DNA of 64,000 nucleotides from Nitrospirota bacterium (GTDB taxonomy: Bacteria > Nitrospirota > UBA9217): positions 160,001 through 224,000 of the forward strand of contig CAVWHO010000016.1 in the NCBI GenBank assembly GCA_963754875.1, in the 5' to 3' direction. This document shows, in pieces, positions 3,124 through 55,037 of this stretch. Every line of letters begins with the position of its first letter. The stretch's first letter is position 1. The position numbers and the translations under genes are program-made. Below the pieces are notes generated by a model, which worked only from the letters and a program-made list of their open reading frames with translations, ran no database searches and had not been told where the DNA came from.

Positions 3124-3768
3124 TTATTTTTGCGCTGGTTCTTTTTCCGGCGTCAACACGATGTTGATTCTTCGATTCTTTGCCCTTCCTGCCTCAGTAT
3201 CGTTTGATGCGATTGGTCTATATGACGAGTAGCCTGTTGCGGCGAGGAGTTTGGGATCGATACCTTTCATCTGCAGATATCGAGCGACTGTTGTCGCGCG
3301 TGACGTTGAAAGCTCCCAGTTCGATGCGAACTTTGCCTTGATCCGTTTGCTTAATTGAACATTGTCTGTGTAGCCTTCGATGCGGATTTGCTTGCCAGTT
3401 GTTTTTTTCAAGATCACCGCGACACGGTCAAGGACCTTTTTCCCCTCCTTCTTTATATCCGCGCTGCCGGACTCAAACATGATCTGCTCAACAAGGTTGA
3501 CCGATAGCTGGTCCTTGAGCTGCGTGATGGTGATCTCGCCTTTTTTAATCTCCTGGCTCATCTCTCCCATGAGATTGTCATAGGTATTCTTTATCTCTTT
3601 GAGGGATCGCTCTTTCCCCTCGATTGTGGCATCTTTTTCCTCAACCAAGGTGGTGACTTGCTTTTTAAGAGAATCAATCTCCTTGTTCTTTCCATGGATG
3701 GTCGCAAAAACGATGATAAGCACCACAGTTGCCAAGATTAATCGCCACACTCTGCGAGTCCTCCTCAA
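3124..3768 (-). CDS. OmpA/MotB-family peptidoglycan-binding protein with N-terminal TM helix and coiled coil
   Basis: MFESGSADI, IRIEGYTDN, SNWELSTSRA, GRAKNRRINI motifs; start codon uncertain. Confidence 0.85.
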   Translation of the reverse strand: MRRTRRVWRLILATVVLIIVFATIHGKNKEIDSLKKQVTTLVEEKDATIEGKERSLKEIKNTYDNLMGEMSQEIKKGEITITQLKDQLSVNLVEQIMFESGSADIKKEGKKVLDRVAVILKKTTGKQIRIEGYTDNVQLSKRIKAKFASNWELSTSRATTVARYLQMKGIDPKLLAATGYSSYRPIASNDTEAGRAKNRRINIVLTPEKEPAQK

Positions 3769-14453: not shown

Positions 14454-15995
14454 ATGACGAGAGAAAGAATACCCGTGCGAACAATTAAAGAAGTTTTACG
14501 CCTCAAATGGTCCTGCGGCCTAGACCGCCGCGCTATATCCAAAAGCTGTGGAATAGCCAGAAGCACCGTTGACGAGTATACGAAACGAGCCAGACAGGCC
14601 GGGCTATCATGGCCCCTGCCGGCAGACCTGGACGATACCGCCCTCGAGCATCTTCTCTACCCGCCGGTCATTGTCTCCACATCTCCACGTCCGCTCCCTG
14701 TATGGGAGGATGTTCACCGCGAGCTTGCGCGTAAAAGTGTTACCCTGATGCTCCTGTGGGACGAGTACAAAGCGCAATATCCTGAAGGATATCAGTACGC
14801 ACATTTTTGTGACCTCTATCGCGCCTATGCAAAAAAGCTCGATATCTCCATGCGACAGGTTCATCTTGCAGGAGAAAAGCTGTTTGTTGATTACTGTGGC
14901 CAAACAGTCTCGGTAATCGACAAATCCACCGGAGAGGTACACAACTGTCAGATCTTCGTCGCCGTCCTAGGCGCCAGCAACTTTACATATGCCGAAGCAA
15001 CGTTTACGCAGGGTCTGCCAGACTGGATCGGTTCCCATGTCCGGACCCTTAAGTTCATCGACGGTGTGCCCGAGATCCTGATCCCTGATAATCTTCTCTC
15101 CGGCATCACCAAGGTCTGTCGCTATGAGCCAGGCGTCAATCGCACCTATCAAGAGCTTGCAGTTCATTACGGTGCTGCGGTCATTCCTGCCCGCGTCAGG
15201 AAGCCTAAAGACAAAGCGAAAGTTGAAGCCGGAGTCCTTCTGGTGCAGCGTTGGATCCTGGCAGCCCTCAGGAACCGTACCTTCTTCAGCCTCGCAGAAC
15301 TCAATGCCGCTATCCGGGAACTGCTGGATAGACTCAATAACCGGCCCTTCAAGAAGCTCTCCGGCAGCCGTATGAGCCGTTTTCTGGAGATCGATAAGCC
15401 TGCATTACAACCGCTGCCTGCTGTGGCCTTCGAGTACGCAGAATGGAAGATAAAAAAACGTTCCGGCATCGATTACCACGTCGAAGTCAATGACCACTAT
15501 TACAGCGTACCCTACCAACTCCGCAATGAATACCTGGACGTACGGCTAACGGAATCGATTGTAGAAGTCTTCTTTCACAACAAACGCATCGCCTCACATA
15601 TCCGGTCCTATGCCAAGGGAAGACATACGACACTTGCCGAGCACATGCCGAAGTCCCATCGGGACTATGCTGACTGGACCCCAGAGCGCCTGATACGCTG
15701 GGCATCGGAAACCGGCAAATCAACGGCAGAGCTGGTTACGGCCATTCTCGCAAAGAAGCTTCACCCACAACAAGGCTTTCGTTCCTGTATGGGGATCATC
15801 ACTCTTTCCAAGAAGTTTGGCAAAGAACGCGTCGAGGCTGCCTGCAAGCGAGCACTCGCCATCGGGGGCATCAGTTTCGGAAGCGTCAAGTCCATCCTTG
15901 AAACAAATTTAGACAAAAAACCGTTACCAGAGCCAAAAGCCGCATCACAGGCGATCACTCACAGCAACATCCGTGGCAGCGAATACTATAACTAA
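14454..15995 (+). CDS. istA: IS21 transposase IstA
   Basis: N-terminal HTH, GEKLFVDY, PDNL, PKDKAKVE DDE core. Confidence 0.95.
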   Translation: MTRERIPVRTIKEVLRLKWSCGLDRRAISKSCGIARSTVDEYTKRARQAGLSWPLPADLDDTALEHLLYPPVIVSTSPRPLPVWEDVHRELARKSVTLMLLWDEYKAQYPEGYQYAHFCDLYRAYAKKLDISMRQVHLAGEKLFVDYCGQTVSVIDKSTGEVHNCQIFVAVLGASNFTYAEATFTQGLPDWIGSHVRTLKFIDGVPEILIPDNLLSGITKVCRYEPGVNRTYQELAVHYGAAVIPARVRKPKDKAKVEAGVLLVQRWILAALRNRTFFSLAELNAAIRELLDRLNNRPFKKLSGSRMSRFLEIDKPALQPLPAVAFEYAEWKIKKRSGIDYHVEVNDHYYSVPYQLRNEYLDVRLTESIVEVFFHNKRIASHIRSYAKGRHTTLAEHMPKSHRDYADWTPERLIRWASETGKSTAELVTAILAKKLHPQQGFRSCMGIITLSKKFGKERVEAACKRALAIGGISFGSVKSILETNLDKKPLPEPKAASQAITHSNIRGSEYYN

Positions 15996-16013
15996 CTGCA
16001 AAAGGAGACTATT

Positions 16014-16754
16014 ATGTTAGCGCATCCCACACTCGACAAGATCGAACAACTCCGTCTTTTTGGCATGGCAAAAGCCCTGCGTGAACAACTGCAGAATCAA
16101 AAAGCGACTTCACTAAGCTTTGAGGAGCGGCTTGGGCTCCTTATTGACCGAGAACTGACAGAACGAGAGAACAGACGGCTTGTTACGCGCTTACGGGTTG
16201 CAAAACTACGAATCTCTGCCTCTGTCGAAGACATCGACTTCCGTCAGCCCCGAGGGCTGGACAAATCGCTCATTCTGTCGCTTGCGTCGAACCAGTGGAT
16301 TATCGAGCATCACAATCTGCTTATCATCGGCCCGACCGGCGTGGGAAAGAGCTATCTTGCCTGCGCCCTGTCCCACAAAGCCTGCCGTGATGGTCATGCC
16401 GTCGTGTATCAGAGGCTGCCGAGGCTTCTTGAAGATCTGGCCCTATCGCATCACGACGGACGGTATCGGAAACTGATGAAGTCACTTCTCAAGGCAGACC
16501 TGCTTGTCCTCGACGACTTCGGACTTGCTCCGCTCACGACGGAACAGCAAAGAGATCTTCTGGAAATCATCGAGGACCGTTATGATCGCCGGTCGACCCT
16601 CATAACTACCCAAATGCCGGTTAAGCACTGGCATGATATCCTGGCCGACCCGACCTTGGCTGACGCTATCATGGACCGTCTGGTGCATAACGCCTACAAA
16701 ATAGACCTGAAAGGAGAATCAATGAGAAAGAGCAAATCAAAGATCAATCGTTGA
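16014..16754 (+). CDS. istB: IS21 helper ATPase IstB
   Basis: GPTGVGKS, LLVLDDFG, ADAIMDRLVHNA, GESMRK motifs. Confidence 0.95.
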   Translation: MLAHPTLDKIEQLRLFGMAKALREQLQNQKATSLSFEERLGLLIDRELTERENRRLVTRLRVAKLRISASVEDIDFRQPRGLDKSLILSLASNQWIIEHHNLLIIGPTGVGKSYLACALSHKACRDGHAVVYQRLPRLLEDLALSHHDGRYRKLMKSLLKADLLVLDDFGLAPLTTEQQRDLLEIIEDRYDRRSTLITTQMPVKHWHDILADPTLADAIMDRLVHNAYKIDLKGESMRKSKSKINR

Positions 16755-20001: not shown

Positions 20002-21358
<1,357 letters not shown>

Positions 21359-24600: not shown

Positions 24601-24996
24601 TTATTTTTGCACGACGTCCAGGATCAAGCTCAAGGTCAACACCGGACTCTTTCGGTCGTTTGAATAGAGGCTGACATGTTTTACCAGATGTCCGTTCTTT
24701 CCGGCTGTGTTCACATCTGCCTTTATCTGTCCCACGGTCCCCGGGTCAAGGTGATTAGAACTAATCACCGCAGCAGTGCAGCCTCAGGACGGCACGACCC
24801 GCTCAATATCCAGAGTCTCGTTCCCGCCGTTTCTGATTTCAAATACGTGACTTGCCAGGGTCCCCTCGACGACTTTACCGAAATCATATTGCACTTCCTT
24901 GGCGATGATCCTGGGCCCTTTTGACTCCTGCGCGGGCAGCACCCCCGCGAACCCGATCACAAGCACAACGACAATGACTGCGATGATCTTCTTCAT
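24601..24996 (-). CDS. DUF1573-domain secreted selenoprotein (S-U-G-C)
   Basis: In-frame TGA at 24784-24786 sits at the Cys position of the S-C-G-C-T motif; frame continues GCTAAVISS..HVSLYSND..VVQK to TAA; hairpin GGTGATTA-GTTC-TAATCACC at 24750-24769. Confidence 0.8.
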
Positions 24997-27888: not shown

Positions 27889-30237
27889 TTAGCCGCACTT
27901 CGAAAACCCGCAACCACGGCAAAAAGCGCAGCCTTCGCCGAACTCCAGGAGCCCGCCGCAGTCCGGGCATTCGGGGCAAAGGCCGAGGTGGTTCGTGTTC
28001 CCGCCTTTTGCGCAATCGGACGAGGTATAACCGACTGTCGGCTGGGCAGAAGAGGTCTTGTGGCGATGGCTCACATGCTCTTTTGTGTAACGTTCAAGCG
28101 CCCTGCCGATGGCATCGGGGCAGGACAGGATAGATCCGCCCTCACCCCAGGCCGGAGACGGGCAGCGAATGCCCTTTACCTGCTTGATGATGGAATCTAT
28201 GGACACTCCCGAGCGGAGCGCCAGCGAGACCATGCGGGAGACGGCCTCGGACTGGCTTGCGGCGCACCCACCGGACTTGCCCATGGTGGAGAAGACCTCG
28301 CAGATGCCTTCCTCGTCTTCGTTGATCGTGATATAAAGGTTGCCGCACCCTGTGGGAAGCTTCTGGGTTACGCCATGGGTGAGCGCGGGACGGCTCCTCG
28401 GCTTCTTCTCCTCGGCCAGCTCGGGCGAGGCCGAGGCGACCGTAACGTGCTGGTTTGTTGCAGCAGCTTTGCGCGCCTTTTCCGTGGCCCCGGTAGACAG
28501 CACCTGCTCGTCGCGGGAGCCGTCCCGGTAGATGGTCACGCCCTTGCAGCCGGTCTTGTACGCCAGCAGGTAGACTTTTTCGACGTCCTTCTTCACGGCG
28601 CTGTGCGGGAAGTTCACGGTCTTGGACACGGCATTATCGGTGTATTTCTGAAACGCCGCCTGCATGCGGATGTGCCACTCCGGGGTGATATCGTGGGCCG
28701 AGACAAAGACTTTCTGCACGTCCTCGGGAACGGTCTTGACGCCCGTGCATCCGCCGTGTTCTGCGATCTCCTTCATCAGGGACTCGGACGCGAACCCGCG
28801 GGCCTTCGCGACCCGCTCGAACACGGGGTTCACTTCGATCATTTCAGTGCCGTCGAGCACCTTGCGCACGAAGGAGAGCCCGAAGAGCGGCTCGATGCCG
28901 CTGGAACAGCCGGCAATGATGGACAGGGTGCCGGTGGGCGCGATGGTCGTAACCGTTGCGTTCCGGAGAGGCGCCATTCCCGGCTTATCGTAGATACTGC
29001 CTTTGAAGTTCGGGAAAGCGCCGCGCTCCTTGGCGAGTTCCTGGCTCATCTTCCGGCCCTCGTCGGTGATAAACTTCATTACGGACTCACCGACCCGCAC
29101 CGCTTCGTCAGAGTTGTAGGGGATGCCCATCTCGAGCAGCATGTCGGCGAAACCCATGACGCCGAGGCCTATCTTGCGGTTGGAGCGGGTCATCTCGCTG
29201 ATCTTGTCGAGGGGGTACCGGTTTGCATCGATCACGTTGTCCAGGAAATGGCAGGCCTGCTGCACCGTGTGCCGGAGCTTGTCGAAATCGATCGCCGTGC
29301 CGTGCTGCGCCAGCATCTTCGCCAGATTGATTGATCCCAGGTTGCAGGACTCGTACGGGAGCAGCGGCTGTTCACCGCAAGGGTTGGTGGACTCCACCAT
29401 GCCCACGTGCGGCGTAGGGTTGTACTGGTTGATGCGGTCCAAAAAGATGATGCCCGGGTCGCCGTTCTTCCAGGCCATGTTCACGATGGTGTCGAAGACC
29501 TTTCGGGCCTGGAGCCGTTTAACCACCGCCTTGCCGCGCGGGGTGACCAGGTCGTATTCGCCGTCCCTATCCACAGCGTCCATAAAGGTGTCGGTCATGG
29601 CAACGGAAATGTTGAAATTATTGAGCCGGTCGTTCTGCTGTTTGCAGGTGATAAAATCGAGGATGTCCGGGTGGTCTATTGACAGGATGCCCATATTGGC
29701 GCCCCGGCGCGTGCCCCCCTGCTTTACCGTCTCGGTGGCCGCATCGAACACGGTCATAAACGAGATCGGGCCCGAAGACACGCCCTTGGTGGACTTGACC
29801 ACGTCGTTCTTCGGACGGATGCGGGAGAAGGAGAAACCCGTACCGCCGCCTGACTTGTGGATAAGCGCAGCGTTCTTCACGGACTCGAAGATCTCGTCCA
29901 TGGAATCGCCCACGGGCAGCACGAAACAGGCCGACAGCTGGCCCAGTTCACGCCCCGCGTTCATGAGCGTGGGGCTGTTCGGCAGGAACTCGAGGGAGGT
30001 CATGAGGCGGTAAAACTCAGTCGCAGTCCGCTCCACATCTGCGTCGGACTTGCCGTAGGCGCGGTCGGCCTCGGCAATGGTTCGCGCCACGCGCGTGAAC
30101 ATGTCAACAGCCGTTTCAATAACAGTCCCGTCTTCGTTCCGCTTAAGATAGCGTTTTTCGAGAACCTTGAGGCAGTTCTCAGAAAGATTGAGGCCTTTGC
30201 CGGAAGCTGTTGTTGAAACAGAAGCTGCGCTCTTCAT
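27889..30237 (-). CDS. nrdJ: Class II (B12-dependent) ribonucleotide reductase with TSCPD domain and Zn ribbon
   Basis: PNSPTLMNAG, SACFV, TNPCGEQPL, APTGT, SCPDAI, CPDCG..CRGCG motifs. Confidence 0.95.
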   Translation of the reverse strand: MKSAASVSTTASGKGLNLSENCLKVLEKRYLKRNEDGTVIETAVDMFTRVARTIAEADRAYGKSDADVERTATEFYRLMTSLEFLPNSPTLMNAGRELGQLSACFVLPVGDSMDEIFESVKNAALIHKSGGGTGFSFSRIRPKNDVVKSTKGVSSGPISFMTVFDAATETVKQGGTRRGANMGILSIDHPDILDFITCKQQNDRLNNFNISVAMTDTFMDAVDRDGEYDLVTPRGKAVVKRLQARKVFDTIVNMAWKNGDPGIIFLDRINQYNPTPHVGMVESTNPCGEQPLLPYESCNLGSINLAKMLAQHGTAIDFDKLRHTVQQACHFLDNVIDANRYPLDKISEMTRSNRKIGLGVMGFADMLLEMGIPYNSDEAVRVGESVMKFITDEGRKMSQELAKERGAFPNFKGSIYDKPGMAPLRNATVTTIAPTGTLSIIAGCSSGIEPLFGLSFVRKVLDGTEMIEVNPVFERVAKARGFASESLMKEIAEHGGCTGVKTVPEDVQKVFVSAHDITPEWHIRMQAAFQKYTDNAVSKTVNFPHSAVKKDVEKVYLLAYKTGCKGVTIYRDGSRDEQVLSTGATEKARKAAATNQHVTVASASPELAEEKKPRSRPALTHGVTQKLPTGCGNLYITINEDEEGICEVFSTMGKSGGCAASQSEAVSRMVSLALRSGVSIDSIIKQVKGIRCPSPAWGEGGSILSCPDAIGRALERYTKEHVSHRHKTSSAQPTVGYTSSDCAKGGNTNHLGLCPECPDCGGLLEFGEGCAFCRGCGFSKCG

Positions 30238-45128: not shown

Positions 45129-45329
45129 ATATCCTCCTCTATTCTGTTGTTTCAAAATGAATAATAACAGACAAGCAAATGCAAGACCTTATGTGCGGGA
45201 ATACGTTCTGAAGATAGCATACAACCCTACTCTTGTCAACGGTAAAGGATTTTCGACCATCTGGGCGTCCTGCTACAAAGTGCACGGTATCATTGACGCT
45301 TATTGCTCCAAAACTTCTGCACCGTCTTG

Positions 45330-45630
45330 CCGAGTTGTGCATGGTTTGCGCCGTGGACACGGCGCCGCAGAAACCGTAATTCCGGAACTGTCCCCTGATG
45401 AGGTCGTTTGAGTAATCGCCCGATACGATCCTTTGTTTTCACATCGCATTCCAGCAGCCTTTTCATGACTCCTCGCCCCCCTGCCGGGGGAATGGTCAGG
45501 TCCATGATGACGACGCTAATGGCAGCCTTTTTTTCCTCGGCATAGACGTGGAACGTTTCCTGGCCGTCGCGGGCGCAGAACACAGCGTTTCCCAGTGGCT
45601 CAAGCCGTTTTCCCCTCCTCCGCTTGCTGC
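45330..45630 (-). pseudogene. Degraded receiver-domain fragment
   Basis: ARDGQE..VVIMDLTIP with frameshifted downstream segments. Confidence 0.5.
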
Positions 45631-45633
45631 TGA

Positions 45634-46143
45634 TCACCACCCGTTATCATGGACCCGCGAACCGTCGAAGCGGTCTTGTGCCTGTTTGATCTCCGCCGGG
45701 AACCCGAGCGGGATGAGAGAAAACGGCACGACGTGTTGCGGCATGCCCAACAACCTCCGAAGGTTCATGACCCGGTCTTCAGTCGGATATACACCGCACC
45801 AGACCGAGCCGAGCCCTTTTGCATGGGCGGCAAGCAGCATATTTTGCGTTGCCGCCGCGCAGTCGAGCACCCAGTATCCTTTGTGTTTTTCCAGCGTGGG
45901 ATCGCCGCACACGAGGATGGCCGCGTGAGCCTGTTTCAGCATCCCGGCATAAGGATGGAACTGAGGGATCTCATCAAGGATCGCGCGGTCGGTTATGACG
46001 ATGAAATGCCATGGCCGCTCACCTCCCGCCGAAGGGGCGCTCATGGCTGCTTTCAGGATCTCCTCGATGAGTGTGCGGGAAACGGGCTTCGGTGTGTAGA
46101 GCCTGATACTCCTGCGGGAAAAGATCGCTTCCAGTGCTTCCAT
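45634..46143 (-). CDS. Nitroreductase-family flavoprotein
   Basis: RRSIRLY, APSAGGERPWHF, NMLLAAHAKGLGSVW motifs. Confidence 0.9.
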   Translation of the reverse strand: MEALEAIFSRRSIRLYTPKPVSRTLIEEILKAAMSAPSAGGERPWHFIVITDRAILDEIPQFHPYAGMLKQAHAAILVCGDPTLEKHKGYWVLDCAAATQNMLLAAHAKGLGSVWCGVYPTEDRVMNLRRLLGMPQHVVPFSLIPLGFPAEIKQAQDRFDGSRVHDNGW

Positions 46144-46162
46144 ACAGTCCTCCTTGCCGCGC

Positions 46163-47131
46163 TTAGCGCACTTTCGTCTGATATGTCCGGACCATCTCCT
46201 CGACGCCCCGTTCCAGAGTGTATTCAGGCTCCCAACTGAGCACGCGCCGGGCCTTATCGTTGAGAAACAGAAGATCGGAAGACGCATACTGCACATACGC
46301 ATTCAAGCTGAATTTCACATTAAACAGGCTGCCGACAAAGTCAAGAGCACGCGACGGAACGCCCAGTGCAACAGTCGGCACGGGCAAGAGCCTGAATTTT
46401 TTCCCGACTGATGCGGCAATGGCATTGAAAAAATCATACCAACTGTGACGCAGGCCGTCGGTAAGATTGAATGTTTGGCCTGCGGCATTCTCTTGCAAGC
46501 CGGCGAGGTAGATGGCGCGGGCAAGATCTTTCACATGAATGAGCGGGGCGACGTTATTTCCCTTTCCCACAAAGGGAAAACCAATAGGGCCGAATCGTTC
46601 GATTGCAGCGATTAACCCTCCGAGGTAACGGGAGCCAGAGCCGTAGACCACGCCGGGCCTGATGACGACGTACTCTACCGCTGTCTGTGCTGCAAGAATC
46701 TCTTCACACTGTTTCTTGTAGGCGGTGTAATGCTCTTCGGGGACAAGCTTCGGTTCTGTCTCTTCCGAGGAAGGAAGTGCCGAGGGAATGCCTGCCACGG
46801 TCAACGAGCTGATGAAGAGGAAGCGCTTTAAGCCCGCTTTTTCAATGTTGTTGAGAATCTTTTCTACAAGCTTCACGTTCTTCTTCGCGGCTCGGGGTGA
46901 TGTGTTCCTCAGCTCTCCGATATGGTAGAGCACATCCATGCCCGCCATGGCATCAACGAGTGAGCCGGCATCCTGGAGGTCTCCGCGAAAAAGCGAGACA
47001 TCTTTTCCTGCGAACTGCGCAGGAAGTTCAGCCGTTCGTGCAAAGAGCCGGACGGTGTGGCCGTTTTCCGCGAGCAGACTGACGACCTTGCTCCCGATGA
47101 ACCCTGTACCGCCGGTGACAAGTGCTTTCAT
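46163..47131 (-). CDS. NAD-dependent epimerase/dehydratase (extended SDR); in frame with the upstream rSAM in this assembly
   Basis: MKALVTGGTGFIG, YTAYK, IRPGVVYG motifs. Confidence 0.85.
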   Translation of the reverse strand: MKALVTGGTGFIGSKVVSLLAENGHTVRLFARTAELPAQFAGKDVSLFRGDLQDAGSLVDAMAGMDVLYHIGELRNTSPRAAKKNVKLVEKILNNIEKAGLKRFLFISSLTVAGIPSALPSSEETEPKLVPEEHYTAYKKQCEEILAAQTAVEYVVIRPGVVYGSGSRYLGGLIAAIERFGPIGFPFVGKGNNVAPLIHVKDLARAIYLAGLQENAAGQTFNLTDGLRHSWYDFFNAIAASVGKKFRLLPVPTVALGVPSRALDFVGSLFNVKFSLNAYVQYASSDLLFLNDKARRVLSWEPEYTLERGVEEMVRTYQTKVR

Positions 47132-48187
47132 ACATGCCAGCTTTGAAGCTTCAATAAAGCACTGCGGGTCTTCTGCAAGAAAATCGTCAACGCCGTGCGA
47201 CCGTGCATAGGCGTAAGCAATCGCCCGGCAGCCCCTGCACTGCGCCCACCGGCTGCAGGTGCGGCATTTACCCTTGTATCTGTTCCGGTCCCTGAGCGCA
47301 TCGAGGATCGGCGACGTTGACCAGAGCTCCCGGAGGGAATCCTTCATTACGTTCCCGAGAGAGAGGGGCAGCCTCCTGCAGGGCATTACATCTCCATTCG
47401 GGAGCACGGTCAAACCGGCAACACCCGCCGAGCATCCGCTGATGGCAACGGACCCGGCATCATCGTCCGTTTTCACCCGCATCTGCGACGCGACCGGGTC
47501 TCCGATTACGATTTCGATGCCGTCATGGCCGAGCGCGAATACTGTTTCATAGAGGTCCCTTACCTGCTCCCGGGTCAGCATTTGCGCGAGCAAGGACCTG
47601 CCTTTCCCGGCAGGCACGAGCCGCGAGAACCCGATCCGTTGTACCCGCATGTGCGAGCCAAGAGCGATAATTTTTTTTACCGTCGAAGCATTGATGGCGG
47701 AAAGCGTAGCGTTCAGCGTGATCGGAAGTTTTGCGTCGACAAGGCATTCGACTCCCTCTATTGAGGCACGAAAGCTCCCCTTGCCGCGGATCGCATCATG
47801 GACATCCTCCGGGCCTTCCATACTTACCTGAACTCCATCGACACCGAGATCAGCAAGACTCCGGGCCCGATCCCGGCTAACAAGGGTCCCGTTGGTAAGA
47901 ACATACATTTTGAATCCCTGCTTCTTGATTTCTCCCAGGATATCGAAGAGGTCTTTTTTCAGGAACGGTTCGCCGCCGGTAACATTCATACTTGGCGAAA
48001 AAGCGACCCCGTAAGTGTCCGACCAGTCTTTGATCATGTCCGATACTTCACCGACGACTCGTTTCATTTCAGACAAAGGCAGCTCTCCAGTGCTTCGCTC
48101 GCTCTGGTAACAGTGCCTGCACCGGAGGTTGCAGTTTTCCGTTAAATGCCACTGGATAAAAAACTCAAAGGGTTTATTGGTTGCCAT
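47132..48187 (-). CDS. Radical SAM/SPASM-domain enzyme (peptide-maturase type)
   Basis: CNLRCRHC (CX3CX2C), TGGEP, SPASM CSAG..NGDVMPC..CRTC..CRGCRA..EDPQC. Confidence 0.92.
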
Positions 48188-48324
48188 GAGATTTAAGGGA
48201 TGCAGCAGATTGCGAATAACTTCGTTTTACACTTGTCAATTATGATCTAAGAAAGATGAGGCGGCAGATCAGGCGGGCCCTCGTGCAACGGCACAGACCA
48301 GCCGGATCTGCCGGCTTGGGTGTT

Positions 48325-48340
48325 GTTGCTGACCAGCAAC
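48325..48340 (-). promoter_or_regulatory. Bacterial SECIS-like hairpin
   Basis: GTTGCT-GGTC-AGCAAC, closely resembling the E. coli fdhF SECIS apex GTTGCA-GGTC-TGCAC; loop starts 25 and 16 nt after the two TGAs. Confidence 0.7.
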
Positions 48341-48341
48341 G

Positions 48342-48464
48342 TTAGCTCTTTCAGCCCTTTCATTTGCGACAGAGAGTGCCGGGATTCTGCTTTGCAAGCC
48401 GCTTCATGGCATTCCAGTATGCTGCTTCTTTAGTAAGAGCGTCCCTGCTCATTTGCTTCTTCAT
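48342..48464 (-). CDS. Putative 40-aa selenocysteine-containing precursor peptide MKKQMSRDALTKEAAYWNAMKRLAKQNPGTLCRKUKGUKS
   Basis: AAGGTGA RBS; in-frame TGAs at 48360-48362 and 48351-48353 in C-x2-U-x2-U register; TAA stop; SECIS-like hairpin; upstream of rSAM/SPASM. Confidence 0.68.
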
Positions 48465-48571
48465 CCTGAATTCACCTTCTTTCTCTTGGCATGGAGATAA
48501 TCATATCATAAAAAAGGAGGTCCTGCGATGTCCCACCGTTCGCATATTACGAGGCGTTACAGTATGTGACT

Positions 48572-53291: not shown

Positions 53292-55037
53292 TCAACAATA
53301 AAGCGGATCGGCGCAGGTCAGGACCTGTTCGCTCTTGCTGCCGCTGCGAAAAACCGTAATACCTTTGACGCCTTCCCGGTAGGCGAGGAGAAAGGCCTTT
53401 CGCACGTCTTCCTCGGTGGCCTGCTGCGGAAAGTTGATCGTCTTGGACACGGCGTTGTCCGTGTGGCGCTGAAACGCCGCCTGCATGCGCACGTGCCACT
53501 CGGGCGCGATTTCGAAGGCCGTCACAAAAAGACGCTTCACGTCTTCGGGCACGCTGCTCATGCGCTGGATGGATTCTCCTGCCAGGACTCGCATCAGTAG
53601 CTGGTCGCTGAAGAACCCCTGCTTTTTTGCCGTTTCGAGGAAGGACTTGTTGAGCTCCGGGAGCTCGACGTCTCCCAGTATGTGGCGCGTAAAGGAGAGC
53701 GCAAAGAGCGGCTCGATGCCGCTTGAGCAGCCCGCAATGATCGAAAGTGTTCCCGTCGGAGCAACCGTCGTCACGGTCGCGTTCCTGAGAGCGGGGCCGC
53801 CCGCTCGATCGTATCTGCTCCCGGGATAGTTCGGAAACACACCGCGTTTTCGTGCAAGTTCGGCCGAATACGCCCGCCCTTTTTCCCTCACGAATTTCAT
53901 GATCTCCTCGCCCGTGCTCAGTGCTTCTTCGGAATCGTAAGGAATACCCAGGCGGATCAATATGTCGGCAAAACCCATGACGCCGAGGCCGATCTTCCGG
54001 TTGCCCTTTGCCATTCGGTCGATTTCGTCGAGCGGATACCGGCTCACATCGATCACGTCGTCCAGAAAATTGACGCCGATCCGCACGGTCTGTTTTAGTT
54101 TTTCCCAGTCTATCTCAGCAATACCGTTAACGGACTTGACCATCAGGCCGAGGTTGATAGACCCGAGATTGCACGGTTCGTAGGGCAGGAGCGGCTGCTC
54201 GCCGCAAGGATTGGTGCTCTCCATCTCTCCGAGCTGCGGGGTGGGATTGTCCCGGTTGATCCGGTCGAGAAACACTACGCCGGGATCTCCCGTTTTCCAG
54301 GCCATCTGCACGATCCTGTCGAAAACCTCCCGTGCCTTCAGCGTCTTGACCACCTGCCGGTTGTGCGGATTGACAAGCAACAGCTCCCCGCCGCTCTCGA
54401 CAGAATGCATGAAATTCTCGGTCACAGCCACAGAAATATTGAAATTTGTCAATTCTCTGTTGTCTTCCTTGGCTGAGATGAACTCCAGGATGTCGGGATG
54501 ATCCACGCGCAGGATTCCCATGTTCGCACCGCGCCGGGTTCCGCCTTGCTTGATCACCTCCGTGGCTATGTTGAAAACCCGCATGAACGATACCGGACCA
54601 CTTGCTGCGCCACTGGTGGTGCGCACGGCATCGTCCTTGGGCCGCAGCCTGCTGAACGAGAAGCCTGTGCCGCCTCCACTCTGGTGGATGAGGGCCGTAT
54701 TCTTGACTCCGTCGAAGATGGATTCGAGCGAATCTTCGATCGGCAGCACGAAACAAGCTGCCAGCTGCTGAAGAGGCCGACCTGCATTCATCAGGGTCGG
54801 TGAATTCGGCAGGAATTCGAGATTTGCGAGTACGCTAAAAAATTCCTCTTCCGTTGCTCGGATATCCGCGTGGTCGTCATAGAGAAGCTCGGCCTGGGCA
54901 ACATTGCTCGCCACCCTGCGAAACATCTCTTCCGGCGACTCTACAGGCCTCCCGTGGTCGTCCTTTTTCAAATAGCGGCGCGAAAGCACCGCCAATGCAT
55001 TTGCAGTAAGGCCCGTATCCTGTGTCTTTACAGTCAT
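53292..55037 (-). CDS. nrdJ: Second, short class II ribonucleotide reductase (no TSCPD domain)
   Basis: PNSPTLMNAG, AACFV, TNPCGEQPL, APTGT; C-terminus QVLTCADPLYC. Confidence 0.92.
   Translation of the reverse strand: MTVKTQDTGLTANALAVLSRRYLKKDDHGRPVESPEEMFRRVASNVAQAELLYDDHADIRATEEEFFSVLANLEFLPNSPTLMNAGRPLQQLAACFVLPIEDSLESIFDGVKNTALIHQSGGGTGFSFSRLRPKDDAVRTTSGAASGPVSFMRVFNIATEVIKQGGTRRGANMGILRVDHPDILEFISAKEDNRELTNFNISVAVTENFMHSVESGGELLLVNPHNRQVVKTLKAREVFDRIVQMAWKTGDPGVVFLDRINRDNPTPQLGEMESTNPCGEQPLLPYEPCNLGSINLGLMVKSVNGIAEIDWEKLKQTVRIGVNFLDDVIDVSRYPLDEIDRMAKGNRKIGLGVMGFADILIRLGIPYDSEEALSTGEEIMKFVREKGRAYSAELARKRGVFPNYPGSRYDRAGGPALRNATVTTVAPTGTLSIIAGCSSGIEPLFALSFTRHILGDVELPELNKSFLETAKKQGFFSDQLLMRVLAGESIQRMSSVPEDVKRLFVTAFEIAPEWHVRMQAAFQRHTDNAVSKTINFPQQATEEDVRKAFLLAYREGVKGITVFRSGSKSEQVLTCADPLYC

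Follow-up and report, generated by a model that had tools for sequence, protein, structure and literature searches.

An unannotated peptide with two predicted selenocysteines and its probable radical SAM/SPASM partner in a Nitrospirota bacterium

We analysed a 64,000-nucleotide stretch of a Nitrospirota genome (contig CAVWHO010000016.1, positions 160,001 to 224,000; hereafter the window), and in particular a short minus-strand open reading frame (ORF) with two in-frame TGA codons that lies upstream of a gene for a radical S-adenosylmethionine (SAM) enzyme with a SPASM domain. Once TGA is read as selenocysteine (Sec, U), ORF 48464-48342 gives exactly the translation proposed in an initial annotation of this DNA: a 40-residue peptide with the C-terminal core C32-x2-U35-x2-U38-K-S, preceded by a leader containing invariant E13 and W17. 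Cys32 (48371-48369) and both TGAs stand in the three-residue register described there, and the frame closes with TAA (48344-48342). The hairpin GTTGCT-GGTC-AGCAAC, a candidate bacterial selenocysteine insertion sequence (SECIS), follows the stop immediately, its loop lying 25 and 16 nt from the two TGAs as had been stated, and the ATG of the enzyme is found 154 nt after the peptide stop (Table 1). From the sequence comparisons that follow, it is almost certain that this unannotated two-Sec peptide is real.

To collect related loci we combined enzyme searches with a profile of the peptide, in a pattern that allowed Cys, Trp or any stop at positions 35 and 38. This yielded 147 loci, 114 of them distinct, once two chance hits and three loci truncated at contig ends had been removed; the chance matches, in genomes G385 and G506, carry Cys codons and have no SECIS. 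Positions 35 and 38 are both TGA in 114 of 114 distinct loci, the Cys32 codon alternates between TGC (86) and TGT (28), and the true terminator varies freely (TAA 56, TGA 48, TAG 10). In the bacterial SECIS model, as given in PMC13188914, the loop lies 16-37 nt after the UGA and its first two positions are G. Terminal TGAs, at only 5-13 nt from the loop, are outside this range, too near by this rule, while the distances of 25 and 16 nt and the GGUC loop agree with the model. Across loci 99.6% of the hairpin cells are paired, with two-sided changes at three of the six pairs; none of 500 shuffles reached the covariation score and slid controls gave at most 0.09, on a measure that related sequences can inflate. 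A six-frame scan of the 4.3-Mb genome finds the pattern C-x2-TGA-x2-TGA followed by one to four codons and a stop 27 times, and the only occurrence with a perfect six-pair GG-loop hairpin at the right distance is 48464-48342. These results support the proposal of one SECIS beyond the stop codon, at a distance from which both UGAs can be decoded. Rfam returned no hit at E values as high as 1. In 51 indel-free orthologs the peptide has a ratio of nonsynonymous to synonymous polymorphism (pN/pS) of 0.21-0.35, which indicates selection at the protein level. Around the Sec residues the contexts are K-U-K and [GS]-U-K: Lys34, Lys36 and Lys39 are kept in 111, 107 and 113 of the 114 loci, every one of them lying four positions away from a Cys or Sec, and the base after UGA is A at both sites in all 114.

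A metagenome set of 80 enzyme loci, 63 of which have enough upstream DNA, gave 53 two-Sec peptides, three one-Sec peptides and seven loci with no peptide upstream. The one-Sec variants suggest that C-x2-U-K is the minimal unit. Eleven of the 53 two-Sec peptides (L260-L266, L268-L270 and L273, in our numbering of loci) form a divergent subfamily with F for W17 and the core C-L-x-U-K-S-U, and their enzymes form a subclade of their own with R at position 229. An interchange of TGA with TGC or TGT at the Sec positions, which the initial annotation had predicted, occurred in 0 of 114 genome loci and 0 of 56 metagenome peptide loci; in a 31-residue database entry (P0186), available as protein sequence only, Cys takes the place of U35.

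The host encodes the machinery for Sec, as had been anticipated: selA, selB and selD are above cut-off (selD with one TGA), and selC is found as tRNA-Sec. In our sample of the phylum selB is present in 190 of 401 genomes. It is found in 65 of the 72 peptide-bearing genomes, and outside the host's family 0 of the 199 genomes without selB have the peptide. Genomes drawn around two Desulfobacterota-type records also carry the family, 16 out of 68 and 16 out of 301 (one chance hit removed). A cultured organism, Syntrophorhabdus aromaticivorans, carries the system at locus L051, with WP_028894462.1 as the enzyme. RNA contigs from four runs on this locus start at 3725-3733, which is 35-43 nt ahead of the start codon; two contigs span the peptide gene into the enzyme gene; these contigs are a weak hint of expression and are unable to rank the levels of the two genes. 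At another locus (L122) a lone peptide gene stands tail to tail with a selD-like gene, recognised by eye.

The peptide is very probably the partner of a dedicated enzyme clade. A conserved peptide ahead of homologous enzymes had been foreseen, and the enzyme gene lies directly downstream in 103 of the 114 loci. Two of the other 11 loci stop at a contig edge and nine have no adjacent enzyme; these nine belong to eight genomes, all of which keep an enzyme ortholog elsewhere (53-59% identity), and two lone peptide copies precede decayed remnants of an enzyme start. Counting as orthologs enzymes of at least 50% identity, we found both genes in 71 of the 401 genomes, the enzyme alone in 2, the peptide alone in 1 and neither in 327. 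One of the two enzyme-only cases has an internal TAA, and in the peptide-only case the contig ends 65 nt away. Distances among the peptides are correlated with those among the enzymes (Spearman 0.73), a result that common ancestry would produce as well. In one subclade (L053-L057, L131-L147, L224-L239) the start codon of the enzyme overlaps the SECIS, so that the hairpin encodes the first residues of the enzyme. Most genomes hold a single peptide copy. Genome G348 holds three (L094, L095 and L096): one with an intact enzyme, one with a decayed enzyme, and one whose start is frameshifted and which follows a fragment of a different radical SAM gene.

The enzyme has seven SPASM cysteines (252, 270, 308, 311, 317, 320 and 343). 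By alignment to CteB, C252, C270 and C320 bind a three-Cys auxiliary cluster 1 and C308, C311, C317 and C343 the other cluster; in the CteB-like arrangement, one iron of auxiliary cluster 1 stays open. No fused RiPP recognition element (RRE; RiPP, peptide synthesized on the ribosome and modified after translation) was found, the radical SAM motif beginning at residue 19 and PqqD giving no match, in a search that did not extend to a stand-alone RRE elsewhere in the genome. The structure model is a TIM-barrel plus SPASM domain with a predicted local distance difference test (pLDDT) value of 90.5, and its nearest folds are SuiB, SkfB, PqqE, anSME and CteB, at 16-22% identity. Among the NCBIfam models shown the enzyme is below every cut-off, the best being the AhbD/NirJ2 models TIGR04545 (176 bits) and TIGR04055 (170 bits; cut-off 500). 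W55 and R286 are present in 36 of 36 aligned enzymes of the clade and in 0 of 11 outgroup enzymes. D230 and C270-R-[RK] are common to the enzyme and SbtM, while the residues after that Cys differ in CteB, SkfB, PqqE and anSME. In a quick tree of 52 chosen sequences, whose deeper order is uncertain, three peptide-linked subclades have Shimodaira-Hasegawa-like approximate likelihood ratio test (SH-aLRT) supports of 99-100 each, and they group together at SH-aLRT 85, apart from SbtM, AhbD-like and TIGR04222-linked enzymes.

We then modelled the enzyme with the 34 residues that precede the first TGA, SAM and three clusters, using alignments of our own making. The complex scored 0.84 and the best of three controls 0.02; of 157 solved complexes 116 reach the mark used for this score, as do 2 of 215 mismatched pairs. 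At least 87% of contacts are common to the model runs, and the partner pLDDT is 77 or higher. The tightest predicted contacts join W17 to W55/Y59, E13 to R286/W289, and Cys32 to the cluster 1 ligands at 251-253 and 320. Invariant residues thus meet in the model, W17 and E13 of the peptide being packed on the clade-specific W55 and R286 of the enzyme, which supports binding; we predict that the peptide binds the enzyme directly.

These results are consistent with the following scheme. SelB, acting on the single post-stop SECIS, would recode both UGAs, a step that sequence conservation strongly supports, and give a 40-residue peptide ending in C-x-K-U-K-x-U-K-S. The N-terminal helix of this peptide would dock on the enzyme, with W17 on W55/Y59 and E13 on R286/W289; because the modelled leader docks at a site peculiar to this enzyme clade, an RRE domain would not be needed. 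A core Cys or Sec would bind the open iron of auxiliary cluster 1, as predicted for Cys32 and by analogy with PapB and Tte1186, and the 5'-deoxyadenosyl radical would oxidatively modify the core. The peptide is thus probably the substrate of the enzyme. As to the chemistry, an SbtM-like oxidation of the Cys or Sec side chain, with an azole as a possible outcome, is a tentative assignment. We lean to it, thinly, because D230 and C-R-[RK] are shared with SbtM and the residues of CteB, SkfB, PqqE and anSME are not. Crosslinks from S or Se to carbon, for instance to a conserved Lys four residues off, are another possibility, somewhat more doubtful, and include the seleno-ethers that the initial annotation had thought possible; they would suit Lys34, Lys36 and Lys39, since each is four residues from a Cys or Sec, although the UGA-A context may explain two of these. 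The SbtM-like oxidation is our single best guess, narrowly ahead in a nearly equal ranking. As no peptidase or transporter recurs nearby, most likely the product is retained inside the cell, where it would perhaps be a redox-active or metal-binding species.

The co-occurrence and the predicted binding would look the same if the selenopeptide were a stable subunit or cofactor carrier and the enzyme acted on another molecule, such as a tetrapyrrole; the peptide would then give the fourth ligand of cluster 1, or bind an Fe-S cluster or metal of its own through C-x2-U-x2-U. The CxxCxxC spacing is ferredoxin-like. The usual single peptide copy, the lack of a recurrent peptidase or transporter, redox-type neighbours (YceI, disulphide oxidoreductase) and the AhbD/NirJ2-like best hidden Markov model (HMM) and tree neighbours also fit such a role. 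We nevertheless consider it unlikely: the host has a separate AhbD above cut-off (530 bits), the intergenic hairpin suggests that the peptide is made in excess of the enzyme, and a leader helix with a C-terminal Cys/Sec core at an open cluster is a known layout for SPASM substrates, as described in PMC10177961. The ORF could instead be a selenium-sensing leader, in which translation of the UGAs controls the downstream hairpin and enzyme expression and the peptide is roleless. A 154-nt stretch preceding the enzyme does contain two UGAs along with a SECIS and a hairpin resembling a terminator, and some coupling to selenium supply is plausible as a side effect, the enzyme start overlapping the SECIS in one subclade. 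However, peptide genes stay intact though unlinked from the enzyme in eight genomes, and the pN/pS values, the invariant E13 and W17 and the predicted direct binding also make this very improbable.

Databases hold the peptide in another form, as a 34-residue selenium-free product that stops at the first TGA. This is how 120 of 120 listed homologs end, two residues after the Cys, and a wider profile search gave 115 hits of this sort; in the model the 34-mer binds by itself, and some product will end at the first TGA whenever recoding fails. As the product of the gene it is scarcely credible, since the first TGA is never TAA or TAG in 114 loci whereas the later stop is free to vary, the second TGA and the codons after it are conserved in frame, the SECIS covaries, and the family is restricted to Sec-using lineages. 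The database ends are the output of gene callers, and the copies examined, named hypothetical or unnamed, are cut at the first TGA and are corrected by the present annotation. One full-length entry with W at every TGA (P0126) proved to be a code-4 gene call, and its cluster mate has 34 residues. The initial annotation had also counted the downstream short-chain dehydrogenase/reductase (SDR) and nitroreductase in the cluster; in such a larger cluster they would tailor the peptide. Both are on the same strand, here enzyme and SDR are one ORF, and both genes follow in 7 of 123 loci. Even so, the SDR follows in only 16 and the nitroreductase in only 17 of the 123, nearly all close kin, and neither lies within 1.6 kb in 97 (many loci have only 1.5 kb of flank, and a second gene can escape the count). 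A larger cluster is therefore extremely improbable, and because the two genes rarely follow we regard the system as one of two genes, peptide and enzyme. Radical SAM enzyme and SDR, described as separate genes, are here a single 674-codon ORF (48187-46163); the fusion comes from a single-base stop loss, codon 348 being TCA where a close relative has TGA. It is found in this assembly only, the other SDR-bearing loci printed lacking it, and may be either a true mutation or a consensus or assembly error.

Several observations weigh against the reading of a two-Sec substrate with a dedicated maturase. Sec insertion, binding and modification are all predicted or proposed from sequence and modelling. 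The 16-nt hairpin by itself has a free energy of -5.4 kcal/mol, weaker than the limit of at most -7.5 kcal/mol in the SECIS model (PMC13188914); from the first UGA onward the value is -10.9 kcal/mol, and -7.9 and -8.0 in two orthologs. Related genomes are among the loci, so kin counts are not independent. Three of the 56 metagenome peptide loci (L217, L229 and L235) hold one Sec only, with the SECIS kept; no DNA-verified Cys variant was found among the 114 genome and 56 metagenome loci; and the Lys after each Sec may stem from the UGA-A context rather than from chemistry. Enzymes with no detectable peptide occur in G039 (100% complete), G064 and G066 and at 7 of 63 metagenome loci. Seven peptide genomes have no selB match; two of them have selA and three have tRNA-Sec or a TGA-bearing selD, while G005 (86% complete) shows none of selA, selB, selD or tRNA-Sec and G059 (63% complete) lacks the two markers tested. 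On the enzyme side, the seven-Cys pattern also occurs in AhbD-like and SbtM enzymes and hence does not discriminate, the support of the clade is only SH-aLRT 85, and its tree neighbours are AhbD/NirJ2-like heme enzymes, not SbtM. In the complex, Cys32 is the only thiol of the modelled 34-mer, our own alignments and the small molecules fall outside the calibration, and the pass may partly reflect likeness, since similar SPASM-peptide complexes have already been solved.

The closest known system is SbtA/SbtM, which likewise pairs a Sec peptide and its SECIS with an adjoining radical SAM/SPASM enzyme in anaerobes, and which PMC9204691 calls the first Sec-containing RiPP from a radical SAM enzyme. 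That the present genes lie outside this family was borne out: the peptide has no match to TIGR04081, the 'selenobacteriocin' precursor model, and the enzyme scores 152.6 bits on the maturase model TIGR04082 (cut-off 350), where a true SbtM scores 565. TIGR04081 has no match anywhere in the host, our peptide profile misses five SbtA copies, and the two peptides show no sequence likeness. The SbtA copies seen here are 66-97 residues long, are hydrophobic at the N-terminus and carry x-U-[AS]-G motifs set well apart, in contrast to a Lys-rich 40-mer with C-x2-U-x2-U that also lacks the SbtA-type GGUG/SGUG motif described in PMC9204691 and PMC13188914. SbtM carries an N-terminal part of about 200 residues that the 346-aa enzyme does not have. 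According to PMC9204691 and PMC11002830, SbtM oxidises Cys or Sec to a thio(seleno)oxazole, with four hydrogens removed. The two systems coexist in G248, G382 and G402. Five SbtA precursors (L276-L280), read at full length through TGA, have two separated Sec/Cys motifs and end in KK, KE or KR, with two copies in G382 and G402.

CteB, PapB, Tte1186 and SkfB share with our enzyme the seven-Cys SPASM pattern, the three-Cys auxiliary cluster 1 and the fold. Against these ranthipeptide and sactipeptide maturases it has 16-22% identity, lacks an RRE and falls far below the PapB, StsB and SkfB cut-offs; their natural precursors use Cys, and the CX3D motif is missing here. PMC10177961 reports that PapB and Tte1186 bind the Sec of a substrate at cluster 1 and make selenoethers on synthetic peptides. 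AhbD and NirJ2 resemble the enzyme in length, Cys pattern, top HMM scores and position in the quick tree; they do not have its W55, R286, D230 and R271. ACGX (TIGR04340) and GeoRSP (TIGR04303) enzymes are also short, RRE-less SPASM proteins, on whose models ours scores 165 and 152 bits (cut-offs 400), and their peptide models have no match. Nearest by identity (38-41%) are radical SAM enzymes linked to TIGR04222, encoded behind a tail of three-spaced Cys; they lack the W55 insertion and R286, and Sec was not seen in these systems. As a sister clade they were rejected, the tree not grouping them with the peptide-linked enzymes. This uncurated radical SAM/SPASM clade (L184-L190) lies directly behind TIGR04222 membrane proteins with Gly/Ser-rich CxxC repeat ends, and its enzymes are candidate protein-tail maturases.

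Two UGAs nine bases apart have precedents in the UxxU double selenoproteins (NF041115, FmdB family TIGR02605, Prx-like) of Table 1 of PMC13188914. These are other families, none matches the peptide in NCBIfam, and that table gives none as a C-x2-U-x2-U partner of a radical SAM enzyme. The peptide family is absent from the 119 prokaryotic selenoprotein families of the same table of this 2026 review, and it matches no NCBIfam or Pfam model. A literature search whose coverage left out most subscription journals returned nothing on it, which does not establish absence from print. Earlier selenoethers came from synthetic substrates (PMC10177961); the family offers a natural 40-residue substrate candidate with a stand-alone 346-residue enzyme, and it makes testable how SPASM enzymes act on natural Sec, how a leader is read with no RRE, and whether one post-stop SECIS serves UGAs at 25 and 16 nt. 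The system might represent a second class of selenium RiPP with a chemistry of its own, common among anaerobic Nitrospirota and Desulfobacterota, with a precursor that has both Sec decoded from a single post-stop SECIS, an RRE-independent leader site and either natural Se-to-carbon crosslinks or a peptide-derived, Se-bearing redox cofactor; we regard this as a speculative prospect.

Several elements flank the peptide gene. A GGAGGTG-type site stands ahead of the peptide start in the 49 loci listed. The promoter match is weak by itself, as 0.6 such matches are expected by chance; -10-like motifs occur upstream of 45 of 70 orthologs, a raw count with no background rate. The second, longer hairpin between peptide and enzyme shows arms with comparable motifs at 68 of 92 loci, counted with a permissive pattern and likewise with no background rate, and T-runs come after it at loci where the peptide gene stands alone; it may be an mRNA stabiliser or a leaky terminator.

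Table 1. Coordinates of the features discussed and of other features of the window.
Feature	Position	Strand	Basis
Predicted 40-residue selenopeptide gene	48342..48464	-	Translation, ortholog conservation, pN/pS
Ribosome-binding site AAGGTGA, ATG 7 nt downstream	48472..48478	-	Sequence
TGA35 (predicted Sec)	48360..48362	-	SECIS loop 25 nt downstream; TGA in 114/114 loci
TGA38 (predicted Sec)	48351..48353	-	SECIS loop 16 nt downstream; TGA in 114/114 genome loci, 53/56 metagenome peptide loci
Bacterial SECIS-type hairpin GTTGCT-GGTC-AGCAAC, entirely 3' of stop codon	48325..48340	-	Covariation
Sigma-70-like promoter match GGGACA-18-TATGAT upstream of peptide gene	48505..48534	-	9/12 match
Second, longer hairpin, peptide-enzyme intergenic	48262..48313	-	Region z = -2.69
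Radical SAM/SPASM enzyme, 346 aa	47150..48187	-	CxxxCxxC at 19-26
TCA replacing stop codon (enzyme codon 348)	47144..47146	-	Relative at 82% identity has TGA
NAD-dependent epimerase/SDR, local neighbour	46163..47131	-	Follows in 16/123 loci
Nitroreductase, local neighbour	45634..46143	-	Follows in 17/123 loci
DUF1573/OS_HP2-like selenoprotein, S-U-G-C, hairpin 14 nt after TGA	24601-24996	-	Pfam 76 bits (cut-off 26.1); NF041425 78 bits (cut-off 100)
Two ribonucleotide reductase large-subunit genes, one with TSCPD domain	27889-30237 and 53292-55037	-	
Adenylosuccinate synthetase ORF, model positions 1-173 of 416 only; may be split	20693-21322	-	
IS21-type transposase and IstB pair	14454-16754	+	

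The commonest gene following the loci is YceI (27 of 149), and a pyridine nucleotide-disulphide oxidoreductase follows in eight; the recurrent neighbours include no peptidase or transporter. In the window, a weak remnant of a response-regulator receiver (45290-45640, minus strand) overlaps the stop of the nitroreductase. We also considered a link to mercury methylation and rejected it, since the HgcA model matches 53 of 64 genomes of the host's order regardless of the peptide. The host itself has an HgcA match above cut-off on contig C16 (598766-599746), outside the window, as do 52 of the 64 genomes of its order.

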